A stretch of 9,821 nt of DNA from a virus (taxonomy: Duplodnaviria; Heunggongvirae; Uroviricota; Caudoviricetes): the IMG/VR virus record IMGVR_UViG_2802429224_000016. One strand, 5' to 3'. Below are positions 1,571-7,733 of this stretch, piece after piece. Both the position numbers and the translations under genes were made by a program. Numbering within the stretch: the stretch's first letter is position 1; each line of letters begins with the position of its first letter. A model generated the notes under the pieces. The model saw only the letters and a list, made by a program, of their open reading frames with translations, had not been told where the DNA came from and searched no databases.

Positions 1571-2356
1571 TTACTTGATAAATCCTGCCGCCTTTCCCCG
1601 CCTGTATTCCTCCATCAGCCACTGCGCCGGTGTTATTCCCCCAAGGGTGGCGGCGTTAGGCATGCACCCGAAACTTCGCCCTGGTGGATGGTAAACGTCT
1701 CTCCCTGTGTCCGGAGGTGTACTCATGGGCTCTGGCTTTGCCTGTATGCTGATCACCGGATCGGGTATCTGCTGTCCGGAAGCCACCTTTTTCGCCCAAT
1801 CATCGAGCAGCCTGCGCGCGTGTTTCTCAACCTCAATCTCGCTAAGCTGGCGCTGATACATTGCACGGCGGGTATCACATACGACCCAGTACATAACCGG
1901 ATGTCGCCACGGGAATCTTTCGGGACCACCAGGATATAAACTTTTTTCCTTGCTGTACCGATGAAACTCCGCCATCACATCGTCAATGGTGACGCCAAGA
2001 ACCATCTTGCTGTCTTTACACCACTTGATGAATTGCCCTGGCGACGGCCAGAACGGAGATTCACTGGCGCGGGCGTGGCGCATACCAGCAGAAACCTGTT
2101 CACGGGTTCGGATCCCACTTTCAGCAAACGCAGCAATCCACTGCTGTTTTGCAGCGACTTCCTGCTCTGGCGTCTTCAGGTTGGTTACCACTGCCGCCGG
2201 AAACAGTTGTTTCAGCTGTTTGAAAAGGGCATCAACAAGCCTCTCTGCTGACATGTTCACCACATTGTCATTGTTGACGTACTGATGCTCATAACCTGAC
2301 ATGCGAGAAAGGGCTTCTCCGTCACGGTTTTGTATCGCGGTAAAAACGTTGTTCAC
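1571..2356 (-). CDS. Lambda P-like replication protein (replicative helicase loader)
   Basis: Conserved block WIAAFAESGIRTREQVSAGMRHARASESPFWPSPGQFIKWC resembles lambda P (recalled as RRQWVLAFRENGITTMEQVNAGMRVARRQNRPFLPSPGQFVAWC). Preferred start is GTG 2356-2354, with GGAGGA 6 nt upstream and a GTGA overlap with the O-like stop. The track's ATG 2371 is an in-frame alternative without an RBS. Confidence 0.85.
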   Translation of the reverse strand: MNNVFTAIQNRDGEALSRMSGYEHQYVNNDNVVNMSAERLVDALFKQLKQLFPAAVVTNLKTPEQEVAAKQQWIAAFAESGIRTREQVSAGMRHARASESPFWPSPGQFIKWCKDSKMVLGVTIDDVMAEFHRYSKEKSLYPGGPERFPWRHPVMYWVVCDTRRAMYQRQLSEIEVEKHARRLLDDWAKKVASGQQIPDPVISIQAKPEPMSTPPDTGRDVYHPPGRSFGCMPNAATLGGITPAQWLMEEYRRGKAAGFIK

Positions 2357-3168
2357 AAGAAATCCTCCCATGCTTCAGGGCTGTTCCAGTGCGGAACGTT
2401 GTTATCAGGTAATGTTGATTGCTTCTGTCTGCTAATCTGCAGCCGCCTTGCCAGCTTCTGCTCCCACTGTGCCTGATGGTATGCCTTACCCTCAGCCATC
2501 CAGTAAATTCTGAACTCTGCAAGTTCCTGTGCCGTTGGCAGACTGTCCAGGTAGATCCCCTGCAATGAGCTTTTCCGAAGAAAGTCATCTGATGGCTGCC
2601 ATTGTTCATGCATGACAAATTTGCCTAATTGCCCTGGCCCACGAGGAGGAACAAAGTTATTCATCACGGCGTTGTTTGCGCCGGGGTCATGAGGCACAGA
2701 ATCCCCGCTTTTTGTCCTGCTCTCCCTCTCTTGGTTAAATGACTGGTTATATGACTGGTTCTGGATCCCGTTTTTGGGATCATTCAACATCCCGTTTTTG
2801 GGATCATTCAACATCCCGTTTTTGGGTATATTCCCGTTTTCGGTAACATTACCGTTTTCGGGTTCATTACCCCCCTCCCGGTTGCCTTTAATGTTCCCGT
2901 TTTTGGTTATATTAAGAGAGAAAACCCGTACTCTTTTCGTCGCCCCCTTTCTCTCTCCGGTATCTGAAATAAGCCCCATTTTCATGAGCGATATAAGCCC
3001 GGCCTGCACGGTTTTTTTATTCAGGCAAGTGTCTTTAACGAGGCGTTCTATGCTGGGGTAGCAGAGGTTATATTCATCGGCTCTGTCAGCCATCGAGAGC
3101 AGTATGAGCTTTAATGACGAGCTACCTGGATCTGTCTCCCAGGCCCAATCTGTTGCATGTCTGCTCAT
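2353..3168 (-). CDS. Lambda O-like replication initiator (N-terminal HTH, iteron-encoded low-complexity linker, DnaT/O-like C-terminal domain)
   Basis: 271-aa ORF with ATG 3168 and GGAG RBS. The central peptide repeats (NDPKNGML x2, NG periodicity) are encoded by the iteron array. The C-terminal block QWQPSDDFLRKSSLQGIYLDSLPTAQELAEFRIYWMAEGKAYHQAQWEQKLARRLQ resembles the C-terminal domain of lambdoid O/DnaT-like proteins. Immediately upstream of the P-like gene. Confidence 0.8.
   Translation of the reverse strand: MSRHATDWAWETDPGSSSLKLILLSMADRADEYNLCYPSIERLVKDTCLNKKTVQAGLISLMKMGLISDTGERKGATKRVRVFSLNITKNGNIKGNREGGNEPENGNVTENGNIPKNGMLNDPKNGMLNDPKNGIQNQSYNQSFNQERESRTKSGDSVPHDPGANNAVMNNFVPPRGPGQLGKFVMHEQWQPSDDFLRKSSLQGIYLDSLPTAQELAEFRIYWMAEGKAYHQAQWEQKLARRLQISRQKQSTLPDNNVPHWNSPEAWEDFL
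2765..2910. repeat. Origin-of-replication iteron array inside the O-like gene
   Basis: Two identical 24-bp units ATCCCGTTTTTGGGATCATTCAAC (2765-2788, 2789-2812), a third variant (2813-2836) and degenerate copies with core CCCGTTTT(T)NGG (about 2833, 2852, 2896). The core ATCCC-N6-GGGAT has internal dyad symmetry, as lambda iterons do. Confidence 0.7.
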
Positions 3169-3183
3169 GATTAATCTCCGCTA

Positions 3184-3384
3184 TCAGCTTGAATGTTGTG
3201 GGGTGGAATTAATCATGATCTGCTTAATCTCTGCCCTGATGCGACGGTTTGATTCCATGGTGCACTCAACACAGTGTCCGTTGTAAACCCAGCGTTCACT
3301 GTCATGTCCGTGCTTACATGGTTTTCCGGTGTAGTAGCGTTTAAGTCCGCGCTTTGCGGCATCAATACGTGTAATGATTTCCAT
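3184..3384 (-). CDS. Small Cys/His-rich (putative zinc-binding) protein, 66 aa, at the cII-equivalent position
   Basis: ATG 3384 gives MEIITRIDAAKRGLKRYYTGKPCKHGHDSERWVYNGHCVECTMESNRR... with a C-x-H-x-H...H-C-x2-C arrangement. The track ORF extends to 3447, but that start is a TTG and the added N-terminus is a hydrophobic run. No family recognised. Confidence 0.45.
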   Translation of the reverse strand: MEIITRIDAAKRGLKRYYTGKPCKHGHDSERWVYNGHCVECTMESNRRIRAEIKQIMINSTPQHSS

Positions 3385-3464
3385 GGTAAGCCCTGTTATT
3401 AGTATTGGGATTACGGTTATTTTGTGCTGACACAAAAAAAAGATCAACCAGATTTGGTTTTTTA

Positions 3465-3479
3465 TTACCTTTGAGGTAC
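3465..3479. promoter_or_regulatory. Operator-like site TTACCTTTGAGGTAC (14 of 15 match to TTACC-N5-GGTAA)
   Basis: Lies between the post-cro terminator and the Cys/His-rich gene. Followed on the minus strand by a possible weak promoter (TTGATC-N17-CAAAAT). Confidence 0.35.
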
Positions 3480-3480
3480 G

Positions 3481-3513
3481 AATAGATATGAAAAGACCGC
3501 CACCCGGCGGTCT
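3481..3513 (-). terminator. Rho-independent terminator downstream of the Cro-like gene (tR1-like position)
   Basis: Minus-strand RNA AGACCGCC-GGGU-GGCGGUCU (plus 3494-3513; 8-bp GC-rich stem, 4-nt loop) followed by UUUUCAUAUCUAUU. On the plus strand it is preceded by A's rather than followed by T's, so it is unidirectional. Confidence 0.6.
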
Positions 3514-3534
3514 ACAGAGGGTTGTAGCTGGATA

Positions 3535-3765
3535 TCATGAGTAGAAGAAGTATGCCAGTTCTGCTTTTGAGCGCAGCCATTGTCTTGTTTTACAGGCTTT
3601 AAAAAGCCCATTCATCAATACTTTACCTGGCATTTTGCGCTTACCTGTTAAGTGAGTCTGGATATAGTGACTCGTCGTTCCGGCTTCCTGTGCGAAGGCT
3701 TCACGCTCATCCGGAGTAAGTGCAAGCCAGTGCTTTTTGAAATCGAAATGTCCGTTATCGCTCAT
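3535..3765 (-). CDS. Cro-like small HTH regulator (76 aa)
   Basis: Divergent from the repressor gene. The segment AGTTSHYIQTHLTGKRKMPGKVL resembles the lambda Cro recognition region (recalled as GVYQSAINKAIHAGRKIFL). Position and orientation match cro in a lambdoid immunity region. Confidence 0.65.
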   Translation of the reverse strand: MSDNGHFDFKKHWLALTPDEREAFAQEAGTTSHYIQTHLTGKRKMPGKVLMNGLFKACKTRQWLRSKAELAYFFYS

Positions 3766-3790: not shown

Positions 3791-3819
3791 ATAATAAATA
3801 TTCACCCATAAGGTAACAA
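3791..3819 (-). promoter_or_regulatory. pR-like promoter driving the Cro-like gene
   Basis: On the minus strand: -35 TTGTTA (plus 3819-3814), 17-bp spacer, -10 TATTAT (plus 3796-3791). Operator site 3802-3816 sits inside the spacer/-35. Confidence 0.45.
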
Positions 3820-3864
3820 AAATCAAGGATAGTTACCTATGAGGTGCATTTACCTGTTGGGTAA
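3802..3864. promoter_or_regulatory. oR-like tripartite operator (3802-3816 TCACCCATAAGGTAA; 3833-3847 TTACCTATGAGGTGC; 3850-3864 TTACCTGTTGGGTAA)
   Basis: Three 15-bp palindromic sites in the divergent intergenic region between the Cro-like and repressor genes, centre spacings 31 and 17 bp. One perfect, two with 1-2 mismatches. Confidence 0.55.
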
Positions 3865-3919
3865 TATTGCTTTAAATTGAATCATCTACTGATTCATATA
3901 TGAGGCGATTTTCCAGAAA

Positions 3920-4504
3920 ATGAAAAGTATCCAGGACGTCCGCAGGCAAAATCTCAACGACTTGATCGACCGTGAATTCAATGGTGTTCAGACGCGGATG
4001 GCAGAAAAACTTGGAACTCAGGCAAATCTGGTAAACCGCTGGGCTCTTGGCAAGAAGGTTATCGGCGACCAGGTTGCGCGAAAAATTGAAGCTGCCGCCA
4101 ATAAACCCCGTAACTGGCTTGATATCGATCGCTCGCTTTCTCAGGAAGGTTTTCAGCCTGTCGGCCCGAGTGATATAGGTCAGCTGGCTGCTCACAACCT
4201 GGAACGCTGGATGAGCGAAAGCCGCGACCTTTCAACGCAGGGAAAACTACACCGCGCATCCGGCGTCGCCCAGGTGACAATCAGCCGCCTGTTAAACAAT
4301 GAGGTCAGCGTTTCCATTTCCACCCTGGAGAATGTTGCATCTGCATTCGGGCGTCATGGCTATGAATTACTGATTCACCCGCACGACCCTGCGACTATCA
4401 ACTATGACCGCTCGCGCTACGCATTGTTACCCGAAACCGAGAAAGCAAAGATCGAAAGTTACATTGAATTTGTCATCAACCAGAACGAAAAAAACAAACA
4501 ATAA
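3920..4504 (+). CDS. Putative prophage repressor with tandem HTH_XRE-like domains, no S24/LexA-type peptidase domain (194 aa)
   Basis: First HTH around QTRMAEKLGTQANLVNRWALGKKVIGDQVARKIEAA, second around LHRASGVAQVTISRLLNNEVSVSISTLENVASAFG. No Ser/Lys autocleavage motif seen in the C-terminus. cI-equivalent position: divergent from cro, flanked by both operator clusters. No SD upstream of ATG 3920, so a leaderless transcript is possible. Confidence 0.7.
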   Translation: MKSIQDVRRQNLNDLIDREFNGVQTRMAEKLGTQANLVNRWALGKKVIGDQVARKIEAAANKPRNWLDIDRSLSQEGFQPVGPSDIGQLAAHNLERWMSESRDLSTQGKLHRASGVAQVTISRLLNNEVSVSISTLENVASAFGRHGYELLIHPHDPATINYDRSRYALLPETEKAKIESYIEFVINQNEKNKQ

Positions 4505-4550: not shown

Positions 4551-4561
4551 TGCCTGTTAGA

Positions 4562-4638
4562 TTACCTGTTGGGTAATTTTTTTAACTCATATCTATTGAC
4601 ATCAAACCAGATACGCATAATTATTACCTAAACGGTAA
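4562..4638. promoter_or_regulatory. oL-like operator pair (4562-4576 TTACCTGTTGGGTAA; 4624-4638 TTACCTAAACGGTAA)
   Basis: Two perfect palindromes flanking a candidate promoter. The 16-mer TTACCTGTTGGGTAAT is identical to the site at 3850-3865. Confidence 0.55.
4596..4624 (+). promoter_or_regulatory. pL-like promoter for the rightward early operon
   Basis: Perfect -35 TTGACA (4596-4601). The -10 is either AATTAT at 17-bp spacing (4619-4624) or CATAAT at 14-bp spacing (4616-4621). The -10 region abuts or overlaps operator 4624-4638. Confidence 0.35.
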
Positions 4639-4657
4639 CAGACCGAGGTAACAAGTT

Positions 4658-4812: not shown

Positions 4813-5112
4813 ATGAACGTTAATCAGCAGAAAAATCTTCAAAAAATCATGCTGGCATTCGACAAGGACTACCGCCTGTCAGAACAGCTATATGACCGAC
4901 AAGTTGAACTGATTGAGAGCATCCGACTTCATCAACTGTCCTCAACTTTCGACGTTGTAACAGGCAAAGGCGTTCGTCAGGAAGTACTGGAGGCTGCTAA
5001 AGACAGCCCTGAGTTCGAAGAACTGATGGATGCCTATCGGCGAGAGGCAATGGCAATTATCGCCCGCTGGGATCTGGCGGATCAGCTTGATGGACAGAGG
5101 GACGCGGCATGA
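4813..5112 (+). CDS. Hypothetical protein (99 aa), translationally coupled to the downstream exonuclease gene
   Basis: ATG 4813 with GGAGGG (4801-4806) 6 nt upstream; the track's ATG 4798 lacks an RBS. Stop overlaps the exonuclease start (ATGA at 5109-5112). No family recognised. Confidence 0.55.
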   Translation: MNVNQQKNLQKIMLAFDKDYRLSEQLYDRQVELIESIRLHQLSSTFDVVTGKGVRQEVLEAAKDSPEFEELMDAYRREAMAIIARWDLADQLDGQRDAA

Positions 5113-6008
5113 TGCGGAACGCTGGAATCATGGATAGAACAAAATACATCGGAGGAAGCGATGTTGCAGGGATTCTTGGAATTAGCCCATGGCGCACCCC
5201 GCTTGAGGTTTATCTGGATAAGGTCCAGCCACGTGTCAAACCAGTAGACCCAAGCAAGCAGAAAGTTTTCACGCGTGGCCAGCGTATGGAGCCATACGTA
5301 ATAGACCTGCTTTCTGAGGAAACAGGGATGGAAATCGTTCATCGCGGAAACCGCTATATCCACCGTGATTACGATTTTATTGCAGCTGAGATCGATGCAG
5401 AAGCAGCGTCAGGCGAGAACATTGAGATCAAAACAGTTAGTCCGTTCAAAGCCAAAGAATGGGGAGAAATCCAGACAGATGCAATTCCTGTGCATTACAC
5501 GGCCCAGGCCATGCACGGGTTGATGGTTACAAACAAACAGGTATGCGTTTTCGGTGTGCTTATCGGTGGCGACGACTTCCGAATCTATCGGGTTGAGCGT
5601 GATGAAGAAACTATCCAGGCGATCTTAGAAAAAGAAATCGCTTTCTGGGACCGAGTGAAAAATCTTAACCCGCCGGAAGCTACCAGCGTAAGCGATGTAT
5701 CGCTGATGTTTGAGAAAGATGCCGGGACAAGTATCGAGGCTGACGGAAAGGCACTCGCACTATTCAACGATCTACGAGACATGAAGTCACGCAGAAAATC
5801 ACTGGAAGAAGAAATAGCTATATCAGAAGAGAAGCTGAAGATGTACATGCAAGAGCACTCAGTCCTGACCCTGGACGGAAAGCCGCTCTGCACATGGAAA
5901 TCTCAGATCAGCAACAGATTCGACCAGAAGCTATTCCAGTCAGTACACCCTGAGTTATTCGAAAAATTCAAAACAACAACGACACAACGCGTCTTCAGAA
6001 TGAAGTAA
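5109..6008 (+). CDS. YqaJ-type viral recombinase-associated exonuclease (lambda-Exo superfamily, PD-(D/E)xK)
   Basis: N-terminal motif IGGSDVAGILGISPWRTPLEVY is typical of YqaJ-family phage exonucleases. Sits immediately upstream of recT. GAGGG RBS before ATG 5109. Confidence 0.85.
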   Translation: MMRNAGIMDRTKYIGGSDVAGILGISPWRTPLEVYLDKVQPRVKPVDPSKQKVFTRGQRMEPYVIDLLSEETGMEIVHRGNRYIHRDYDFIAAEIDAEAASGENIEIKTVSPFKAKEWGEIQTDAIPVHYTAQAMHGLMVTNKQVCVFGVLIGGDDFRIYRVERDEETIQAILEKEIAFWDRVKNLNPPEATSVSDVSLMFEKDAGTSIEADGKALALFNDLRDMKSRRKSLEEEIAISEEKLKMYMQEHSVLTLDGKPLCTWKSQISNRFDQKLFQSVHPELFEKFKTTTTQRVFRMK

Positions 6009-6017
6009 GGAGAAAAA

Positions 6018-7040
6018 ATGTCTATCAATGCACTTAAGGCAGCGGCTACCGGTAACCAAGTTGCACATCATAATGAGAAACCAACAACTCTGGCCGGACT
6101 TCTGGCAGACCCAAAAATTAAAGCTCAGATGGCTTTGGCACTTCCAAAGCACATGACAGCAGACCGTCTGGCGCGCATAGCAACCACAGAGATCCGAAAG
6201 GTTCCAAAACTTGCATCATGCGACCAAGCCAGCTTCCTGGGGGCAATTATGCAATGTGCCCAATTGGGTCTTGAACCAGGCGGAGCTCTTGGACACGCTT
6301 ACCTGATACCGTTCGACAAACGCCAGAAAGTAAATGGAAGATGGGAAACCGTATCTACAGAAGCACAGCTGATTATCGGCTATCGCGGAATGATTGACCT
6401 TGCCCGCCGCTCTGGGCAGATCCTGAGTATCTCGGCTCGTACCGTACATACAAACGACAAATTCAGCTACTCATACGGCCTGGAAGAAACGCTCGAGCAT
6501 TTACCTTGCGAAACAGGTGACCGCGGAGAATTAACGCACGTTTACGCCGTTGCACGACTGAAAGATGGCGGAGTCCAATTTGAAGTTATGAGCCGGGCAG
6601 ACGTTGAGAAAGTTCGTGCACTGAGCAAAGCCGGTAGCAGTGGCCCATGGGTTGATCACTTCGATGAGATGGCTAAAAAAACAGTAATTCGCCGACTGTT
6701 CAAATATCTTCCTGTTTCTATTGAAATGCAGAAGGCTGTTGTTATGGATGAGCGCGCTGAAGCTGGACTTAGCCAAGATAACGCAGCTGTTATCACTGGT
6801 GAATATTCCGTAGTTGACGATGAGCGTCAACACCTGTCGCCAATTTCAGATTCAGAACGAGAAGAAGCTCGAGAATATATCATCGCGATACTTAATAGCC
6901 TGGATCCATCTGCTGAAGATGCAAAAACGATGTTCAAGCGCGCTGAAAATGAAATTAACACCATGGCTGACAAGCTCGGTGATGAATATCACCAAAAATT
7001 CATGATGACGCTTAACGATATGCGTCCAGAATTCGAGTAA
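6018..7040 (+). CDS. recT: RecT-family single-strand annealing recombinase
   Basis: Strong resemblance to Rac-prophage RecT as recalled: MTADRLARIATTEIRKVP, LIIGYRGMIDLARRSGQI, THVYAVARLKDGGVQFEVM, GPWVDHFDEMAKKTVIRRLFKYLPVSIE. AAGGAG RBS before ATG 6018. Confidence 0.9.
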   Translation: MSINALKAAATGNQVAHHNEKPTTLAGLLADPKIKAQMALALPKHMTADRLARIATTEIRKVPKLASCDQASFLGAIMQCAQLGLEPGGALGHAYLIPFDKRQKVNGRWETVSTEAQLIIGYRGMIDLARRSGQILSISARTVHTNDKFSYSYGLEETLEHLPCETGDRGELTHVYAVARLKDGGVQFEVMSRADVEKVRALSKAGSSGPWVDHFDEMAKKTVIRRLFKYLPVSIEMQKAVVMDERAEAGLSQDNAAVITGEYSVVDDERQHLSPISDSEREEAREYIIAILNSLDPSAEDAKTMFKRAENEINTMADKLGDEYHQKFMMTLNDMRPEFE

Positions 7041-7433: not shown

Positions 7434-7733
7434 GTGAGAAAGTTAAGCCGACTTGAAAAATATCACATGAATAAGGTTTCAATGCGCAGTCCGTCAAAGA
7501 TTGTCGCCGTTACTCCTGCGGCGATAGAGATCGAAAAACGCGCGATTGAACGAGAGAAAAAAGGGCAGTTCCGCATTGCCGCCCACCTTTGGCTTCAGTG
7601 TATGGATGTTGCTTCTGGTGATGTTGAGCGTGCAAGGATCGCGGTTCGCAGGGACCAATGTATCACAAAAGGTAACGGCCTTCGCCGTGGCGACTATAGC
7701 GGCATAGGATGTTGCGGGGTGGTTTATGACTAA
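7434..7733 (+). CDS. Hypothetical small protein (99 aa)
   Basis: Coordinates taken from the supplied ORF track; my own reading of the first two codons from the sequence text did not reproduce the track's start, so the start is uncertain (ATG 7467 is an in-frame alternative). Stop TAA 7731-7733 overlaps the methyltransferase start (ATGACTAA). Confidence 0.45.
   Translation: MRKLSRLEKYHMNKVSMRSPSKIVAVTPAAIEIEKRAIEREKKGQFRIAAHLWLQCMDVASGDVERARIAVRRDQCITKGNGLRRGDYSGIGCCGVVYD

Follow-up and report, generated by a model that had tools for sequence, protein, structure and literature searches.

What could be the function of the small gene that sits where lambda has cII in a phage immunity region of the phiV10/epsilon15 type? 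The question is raised by a stretch of 9,821 nucleotides (nt) from virus record IMGVR_UViG_2802429224_000016 (Caudoviricetes), hereafter the window, which is the early and immunity region of a temperate podovirus prophage of E. coli belonging to the genus Uetakevirus. An earlier note, made from the letters of the window, had drawn attention to a Cys/His-rich protein of 66 amino acids (aa) encoded at 3184-3384, between the terminator that follows a cro-like gene and an O-like replication gene. Length, coordinates and neighbours are all correct, the latter being confirmed by PHROG and Pfam matches and by the terminator hairpin; the gene lies on the minus strand, which had been left unstated. Judging by its homologues, the protein is a nuclease-less, single-copy form of a widespread module associated with HNH and endonuclease VII nucleases. 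The gene and its ribosome-binding site are the following:

3184-3384, minus strand: gene of the 66-aa CHCC (Cys-His-Cys-Cys) zinc-finger protein, from the open reading frame (ORF) and its translation; orthologue of PhiV10p42 and epsilon15 gp40, PHROG 1081
3391-3394, minus strand: Shine-Dalgarno-like AGGG, read from the sequence, 6 nt before the ATG

The ORF extends from an ATG at 3384-3382 to a TGA stop at 3186-3184. Its product, hereafter the finger protein, has the full sequence MEIITRIDAAKRGLKRYYTGKPCKHGHDSERWVYNGHCVECTMESNRRIRAEIKQIMINSTPQHSS, in which the Cys/His-rich stretch PCKHGHDSERWVYNGHCVEC is literally present. The program-made ORF list gives a longer form of 87 aa starting at a TTG at 3447; this start was dropped and ATG 3384 retained as the real one, because homologues and the phiV10 annotation begin with MEIITR or MKIITR, the corresponding 201-bp coding sequence is annotated in phiV10 as PhiV10p42, and the DNA ahead of this ATG is non-coding promoter sequence that has been conserved. 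Relatives harbor a purine-rich Shine-Dalgarno element at the same distance with a different sequence (GAGG in epsilon15, GGGG in ZX5). With respect to phage Tyrion, the gene displays 19 synonymous and 4 non-synonymous differences over the first 47 codons, with a ratio of non-synonymous to synonymous substitution rates (dN/dS) of 0.02, and with respect to ZX5 the dN/dS is 0.19. Synonymous sites are saturated in the comparisons with epsilon15 and a Samsonia prophage, and the proteins are still 50-60% identical. Because of these low dN/dS values and this level of protein identity despite synonymous saturation, the ORF is, on its substitution pattern, translated and under purifying selection, and so differs from the untranslated ORF that the earlier note had named as a refuting result.

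The finger protein belongs to PHROG 1081, listed with unknown function, its residues 1-66 aligning with positions 1-66 of the 67-position profile (E 2.3e-42). It is 97% identical to PhiV10p42 (97-98% to PhiV10p42 and its relatives) and 54% identical to epsilon15 gp40 over the module; these two represent the same gene, with the same length and the same position after cro, and are annotated as hypothetical only. A weak match to PHROG 1035, named “endonuclease VII”, was also obtained. A word-indexed protein search retrieved close relatives only, and a scan of genome contigs retrieved five loci. When 1.84 billion representative proteins were searched with full HMMER, a profile built from the orthologues matched 16,712 clusters at E<=1e-3 and 3,680 at E<=1e-10. 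Two to five matched stretches per protein are present in nearly all of the best 150 of these 16,712 clusters, and in such multi-copy relatives the module recurs with a period of 55-75 residues. Its consensus reads [IV][IV][ST]R.EA...GL.RY[FY]TG.PC..GH[VIL][AS]ER..... C[VIL].C and runs into a basic stretch; the finger protein fits the frame A..G..[YF][FY]TG.PC..GH...R around C-x3-H-x10-C-x2-C.

The domains found next to this module are almost exclusively those of nucleases. HNH-type tails of at least four subtypes were recognized by motif in 84 of the 149 best matches, and Pfam models for HNH (35), HNH_5 (33), Endonuclease_7 (18) and HNH_4 (11) matched the same 149 proteins with no other genuine domain. 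Structural matches in BFVD include proteins named as group I intron endonuclease, endonuclease VII and HNH nuclease. Outside the Uetakeviruses, the nearest relatives (63% identity) are found at the N-terminus of Vibrio phage proteins of 229 aa, in which a single module is followed by a repetitive basic linker and an HNH domain at the C-terminus. The N-terminal modules of phage HNH/endonuclease VII proteins (PHROG 1035, for example gp42 of Vibrio phage 1.074.O) are homologous to the finger protein, with up to 63% identity, and share with it the CHCC spacing together with A9, G13, Y17, F/Y18, T19, G20, P22, G26 and R31. In contrast to them, the finger protein ends after one module and a helix, without linker repeats or a nuclease domain, and therefore cannot cut DNA. 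Module-bearing ORFs are also found between head genes in Klebsiella phage JD001 and Vibrio phage vB_VchM-138, a placement that resembles, by analogy, that of free-standing homing endonuclease genes. In the nucleases, which are those of phages and bacteria and carry one to five tandem copies ahead of the nuclease domain, the module most plausibly provides DNA target recognition, as the functions of its partners suggest.

No Pfam family describes this module. The finger protein has no match in Pfam (E<=0.1), NCBIfam or PADLOC, and Pfam searches with ten multi-copy relatives and 60 single modules gave chance cysteine-rich matches only, such as NCD3G. In PADLOC, only the HNH tails of fused relatives match, to HNH models of the PtuB, REase or Cas9 type. 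A search for an HNH-type catalytic motif in the finger protein gave no Pfam match at E<=0.1, and the protein ends 25 residues past the finger. Sequence searches of the PDB with the single protein and with the module profile returned nothing better than E 1.5. The gene is thus already in databases, as a hypothetical one, and a description of the module family and of its nuclease link was not found. Several deposited phage genomes contain the finger gene or the module without annotating it, namely ZX5 (2233-2445, apparently with a TTG start codon), TL-2011b, VB_ST_E15 and JD001. The settings of other single-module genes are diverse (a relaxase-encoding mobilisable element, a phage early region and a locus beside an HTH_3 gene) and offer no shared clue. 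In one metagenomic contig (1436-2069), a second, uncalled single-module ORF lies in the 436 nt upstream of the single-module gene at 1872-2069, and both adjoin a divergent HTH_3 regulator.

The conservation of the Cys and His residues indicates which of them matter. C23, G26, H27, S29, E30, R31, C38 and C41 are invariant in 23 orthologues, and the conserved ligand motif C23-x3-H27-x10-C38-x2-C41 takes in four of the six Cys/His residues. H25 is replaced by R or Y in some orthologues and is a His in only 29% of the wider family (position frequencies from 348 module copies), and H37 is replaced by T, E or G in ZX5, epsilon15 and Samsonia. At the level of the 149 distant multi-domain proteins, A9, G20, G26 and R31 are at least 90% conserved. 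On this conservation, the Cys/His pattern is beyond chance. An active mini-HNH nuclease (H-x-H...N-G-H) was considered and dropped, H25, N35 and H37 not being conserved in the wider family.

An AlphaFold2 model (mean predicted local distance difference test score, pLDDT, 92.3) contains helices at 6-11 and 39-60 and strands at 16-18 and 30-32. The strands flank the C-x3-H knuckle, and C38 and C41 lie in the first turn of the long basic helix 39-60. The predicted fold resembles a treble clef more than a zinc ribbon, since this helix has the second pair of ligands at its N-terminus; the order of secondary structure elements fits, and a Foldseek search against the PDB gave no match at E<1. The protein has a mass of 7.7 kDa, an isoelectric point of 9.45 and a net charge of +4.8. 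One zinc ion would be held by C23, H27, C38 and C41, to judge from the spacing of the ligands, from the model and from the domains to which the module is fused.

Several proposals of the earlier note can be revisited in this light. Its spacing C-x-H-x-H...H-C-x2-C survives for C23, H27, C38 and C41, invariant in the 23 orthologues, and not for the variable H25 and H37; the lack of conservation among homologues that it had named as the result to fear was not observed. The zinc ribbon it suggested gives way in the model, where C38 and C41 start the helix 39-60 instead of lying in a second beta-hairpin knuckle. The family it could not place is PHROG 1081, that of PhiV10p42 and epsilon15 gp40, a stand-alone copy of the nuclease-fused module. 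The profile and structure-prediction searches it recommended have thus yielded this assignment, a large module family and a confident model, and no relative in Pfam or the PDB.

Among experimentally studied proteins, the closest parallels are found in homing endonucleases. The two tandem Cys3His fingers of I-TevIII are zinc-binding, and DNA binding as well as dimerisation depends on them (PMC1865063). They are of a size similar to the finger studied here and likewise attached to an HNH nuclease, but their order (CX2CX12-13HX3C, CCHC) is reversed with respect to CHCC, they are C-terminal to the nuclease, and no sequence relation was seen. The finger of I-TevI acts as a spacer that sets distance and is not a DNA binder (PMC1865063). 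By analogy, I-TevIII would be the best experimental precedent for the module, and the I-TevI finger calls for caution. Small modules of this kind, single or in tandem, combine with HNH, endonuclease VII and GIY-YIG nucleases (PMC5714182). The NUMOD modules embody the same concept of a module joined to a nuclease, and no Pfam NUMOD model matches the finger protein or the 60 module copies. NUMOD1, NUMOD3 and NUMOD4 are mostly helical and are not known to bind metal. A possible functional model among small stand-alone phage zinc fingers of about 70 aa is Ogr/Delta of P2/P4 (PF04606), which carries the motif C-x2-C-x22-C-x4-C. The finger protein has no match at E<=0.1 to the Pfam models for Ogr/Delta, TraR/DksA or NUMOD, and none of these recurs in the 60 diverse modules.

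Taken with the position of the gene, these data lead us to favour, as the rather likely explanation, a nuclease-less DNA-binding module whose role would be that of a small early regulator or of an occluder of its site. Synthesis of the finger protein would begin soon after infection or induction, along with that of the O- and P-like proteins. The hairpin and basic helix of the protein would bind a specific double-stranded DNA site without cutting it, and the occupancy of that site would make it a regulator or an occluder. DNA binding is suggested here by the fusion partners of the module, and the regulatory role is likewise deduced.

The genes and signals on either side define the setting in which such a protein would be expressed:

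3920-4504, plus strand: prophage repressor with two helix-turn-helix (HTH) domains (PhiV10p40; HTH_3 E 1.2e-9, PHROG 8), 100% identical to the phiV10 repressor
3535-3765, minus strand: cro-like small regulator (PhiV10p41 / epsilon15 gp39; PHROG 35 “transcriptional repressor”, E 5.6e-13)
3494-3513, minus strand: intrinsic terminator after the cro-like gene (8-bp stem with 6 GC pairs, T-run; a putative rho-independent terminator in the phiV10 record)
2353-3168, minus strand: O-like replication initiator (HTH_36 and DnaT, PHROG 1032)
2765-2917: six iterons resembling ATCCCGTTTTTGGGAT, within the O-like gene (repeat search, family D1)
1571-2371, minus strand: lambda-P-like helicase loader, the last gene of the operon (PF06992 E 6.2e-57, PHROG 109)

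The DNA at 3100-3560 is 97-98.5% identical to PAS61, phiV10 and O157 typing phages 9 and 10, and a close match to the finger-gene region is present in 539 of 5,426 complete E. coli genomes. The O-like initiator gene begins 15 nt past the finger-gene stop with its own GGAG. Past the P-like gene, in minus-strand order, come a second terminator region and a DUF1064 resolvase-like gene. The iterons measure about 18-24 nt with the inverted core ATCCCGTTTTTGGGAT and encode the NGN/PKNGMLND repeats of the O-like protein; by analogy they probably represent the replication origin. The ori of lambda lies inside gene O.

The finger gene is located about 530 bp from the repressor gene, beyond the cro-like gene, in every two-HTH-repressor phage record examined, and the two-HTH-repressor records that harbor it number at least 28 of 36 among the matches listed. 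This spacing holds even though the repressors are 42-100% identical to that of the window. The loci of phiV10, Tyrion, ZX5, epsilon15 and Samsonia all show the finger gene past the cro-like gene, in first place among the early-right genes. The gene that follows varies: a DnaT-type initiator in the window and phiV10, a different initiator in ZX5 and Samsonia, and a cytosine methyltransferase in epsilon15. DNA similarity ends just upstream of the finger gene in ZX5 and inside its 3' end in Tyrion. Since the downstream gene varies and similarity junctions lie near or inside it, the finger gene is, by these comparisons, an independent mosaic unit. Co-variation of the finger with the initiator type was entertained and dropped in view of the mosaic junctions on both sides of the gene. 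The epsilon15 gene in question (34020-35189) encodes a cytosine-5 DNA methyltransferase, lies between the finger gene and the initiator and overlaps the finger-gene stop; it is absent from the window and phiV10.

Upstream of the finger gene, the 110 nt from the terminator to the ATG are better conserved across the genus than the coding sequence, and contain three signals:

3419-3447, minus strand: candidate sigma-70 promoter of the operon formed by the finger, O-like and P-like genes (TTGATC at 3447-3442, 17-nt spacer, CAAAAT at 3424-3419)
3464-3480: repressor-operator-like site ATTACCTTTGAGGTACG, with 2 mismatches to ATTACC-N5-GGTAAT
3446-3459, minus strand: palindrome AACCAAATCTGGTT, which abuts or overlaps the -35 hexamer

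Both hexamers and their spacing are kept in phiV10, Tyrion, ZX5, epsilon15 and four enterobacterial prophages, while the flanking DNA diverges. The operator consensus was taken from sites annotated in the epsilon15 record; a pattern search found 11 operator-like 17-mers in the window where 3.2 are expected, with sites at 1456-1534, 3464-3480, 3801-3865 and 4561-4639. The same succession, in which a terminator is followed by an operator, a -35 hexamer, 17 nt and a -10 hexamer that a second operator overlaps, recurs at PL (4561-4639) and in front of the DUF1064 gene (1534-1456), and the operator/-35/17 nt/-10 layout is kept in four further enterobacterial prophages. From this arrangement we infer a separately promoted, repressor-controlled operon of the replication genes, which the finger gene would head. 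With what appears to be an operator-bearing promoter of its own past the terminator, the finger gene need not be reached by antitermination, unlike cII of lambda. The early-right region as a whole seems to be split into several separately repressed units rather than forming one antiterminated operon, because operator-like sites flank three early promoters of the same layout.

On the opposite strand, a promoter-like sequence (TCTACA-16-TATCAT, 3511-3538, plus strand) with a poor -35 reads antisense through the cro-like gene toward the repressor, in a position like that of lambda PRE. It is one of three promoter-scan matches where 2.7 are expected by chance. Two further palindromes, CTACA-N6-TGTAG and TTTTGTG-N4-CACAAAA, were tried as conserved sites and rejected, neither being kept in Tyrion or epsilon15.

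The palindrome at the -35 hexamer is of a class, AWCCA-N4-TGGTT, that recurs in phiV10, where nine sites are found at <=1 mismatch against 1.5 expected, a number that none of 100 shuffles reaches. In phiV10 such palindromes lie at five promoter regions, those of the head operon, near gp24, of the tail-fibre gene, of the lysis cassette and of the finger gene (coordinates 3305-3318, 20539-20552, 20918-20931, 24736-24749 and 33132-33145). In epsilon15 the motif is retained upstream of gp3 and gp40, and less exact copies precede the tail-fibre and lysis genes. A bolder form of the DNA-binding explanation, which we regard as quite unlikely, would follow from these sites: a domesticated homing-endonuclease targeting domain acting as a core early transcription factor that binds as a dimer to AWCCA-N4-TGGTT at its own, head, tail-fibre and lysis promoters, and so sets lytic timing or the choice between lysis and lysogeny. 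If true, this would be the first function for a module family of >16,000 sequence clusters without a Pfam entry. The core ACC-N6-GGT of the palindrome resembles the repressor operator with one extra spacer base, so that the cro-like protein is no weaker a candidate for binding it than the finger protein.

A number of points weigh against a DNA-binding regulator. The binding is deduced from the partners to which the module is fused, and the list of the best 150 matches, from which these partners were counted, favours multi-copy proteins and is not representative of the share of nuclease fusions family-wide. The treble-clef label describes predicted secondary structure only, with no related solved structure found by sequence or by fold. 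The candidate promoter scores 8/12, below the threshold of the promoter scan. For the palindrome, the cro-like protein, the PHROG 536 regulator (the candidate late regulator at the end of the Uetakevirus early-right operon) and a host factor are equally conceivable as binders. Finally, the literature yielded no paper on this gene or module family, and no experiment on any member. That same PHROG 536 regulator already occupies a Q-like position, and a late-gene activator as the default role of the finger protein was dropped on this ground.

Four other explanations have to be set against a nuclease-less regulator or occluder. The position of the gene suggests a functional analogue of CII, an unstable early activator acting near a leftward establishment promoter, and perhaps also at int, to raise repressor synthesis and the frequency of lysogenisation. 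The finger gene indeed occupies the place of cII or c1 in the lambdoid order, after cro and its terminator and before O and P, its distance to the repressor is fixed in the Uetakevirus-type immunity regions examined whatever replication gene follows, and the promoter-like site at 3511-3538 points toward the repressor as PRE does. However, map position is all that it shares with lambda CII and P22 C1. CII is an HTH tetramer and the finger protein a predicted zinc finger with no sequence or fold relation to it; the earlier note was right to call it unlike CII, as neither Pfam (Phage_CII included) nor NCBIfam gives a match and the model consists of a knuckle and a helix, not an HTH. The site at 3511-3538 occurs at chance frequency, the CTACA-N6-TGTAG palindrome over its -35 is lost in Tyrion and epsilon15, and neither conserved repeats of the CII direct-repeat type nor an establishment promoter could be demonstrated there. 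Moreover, the gene is grouped with the replication genes behind its apparent own operator-bearing promoter, which makes the cII-slot analogy of the earlier note, right as to map position, weaker than it looks. The module family is associated with nucleases and is not a known activator family, and the overexpression study of ZX5 lysogeny genes covered the repressor, antirepressor and integrase only, the ORF being unannotated in that phage. A CII analogue appears rather unlikely. The grouping with O and P could instead reflect a replication accessory that binds the origin iterons, the initiator or the loader, and aids origin opening, loading or the coupling of transcription. In favour of this stand the first place in the operon of the initiator and P-like loader, 15 nt upstream of the former, the overlap between the finger-gene stop codon and the start codon of the following gene in Tyrion, Samsonia and epsilon15, and the location of the iterons 270-420 bp downstream. 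Yet orthologues precede three unrelated genes (two initiator types and the cytosine methyltransferase), and mosaic junctions split the finger gene from the initiator, the similarity to Tyrion ending in its 3' end; together these argue against a specific partnership with one initiator or origin. Replication of the lambda type is also not known to need such a factor, and we hold this role to be doubtful.

A zinc-stabilised adaptor that binds a host or phage protein, such as RNA polymerase or a replication or defence component, would make the gene one of host takeover or anti-defence. Small early phage proteins often target host proteins, and Ogr/Delta is a phage zinc finger of about 70 aa that works through RNA polymerase. 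The finger of I-TevI, which is not a DNA binder, would also fit (PMC1865063). Tandem repeats of the module ahead of nucleases, on the other hand, agree better with reading along DNA than with protein binding, the finger protein is strongly basic, and its very low dN/dS and fixed core-genome position are unlike those of fast-evolving, variable anti-defence genes. The missing PADLOC match is a weak point in this respect, since PADLOC models describe defence rather than anti-defence genes. We find an adaptor improbable. The same homologies could finally be read as those of a decaying, functionless remnant of a free-standing HNH homing endonuclease gene that has lost its nuclease. The nearest relatives outside the genus are N-termini of HNH nucleases, the intergenic-type position flanked by mosaic junctions is that of free-standing homing endonuclease genes, and truncated, frameshifted or chimeric variants exist (P0021, P0038, P0042). 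Decay is nevertheless hard to reconcile with strong purifying selection (dN/dS 0.02-0.19), with a length, start codon, Shine-Dalgarno element and ligands kept across epsilon15, phiV10, ZX5, Tyrion and Klebsiella and Samsonia prophages at 50-60% protein identity, with a close match in 539 of 5,426 complete E. coli genomes, and with the lack of HNH-domain remains downstream of the finger gene. A remnant is extremely improbable.

The small DNA-binding regulator or occluder that we favour is not surprising in kind. A close match in about one in ten complete E. coli genomes makes this a common gene; it lies within the control region of phages from a group that serves to detect and type O157, and has never been assigned a function. 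The link to nuclease modules predicts that its product binds one zinc ion and a specific DNA sequence without cleaving it, and the gene may exemplify a homing-endonuclease targeting domain that selection has preserved since the nuclease was lost. The domain family is very large and absent from Pfam, and a model for it would improve the annotation of thousands of “hypothetical” phage and bacterial proteins. Should the tandem copies read DNA modularly, the module would be a possible small programmable DNA-binding unit.

Two minor features of the window lie beyond the repressor. The exonuclease (5109-6008) and RecT (6018-7040) genes are separate, as in epsilon15, and the phiV10 record presents a single 1,761-bp RecE-RecT fusion (PhiV10p37). 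In addition, a 99-aa ORF at 7434-7733, which matches the position of the PerC-like activator PhiV10p34, has a sub-threshold match to the NCBIfam ANR regulator model (23.6 bits against a cutoff of 32).

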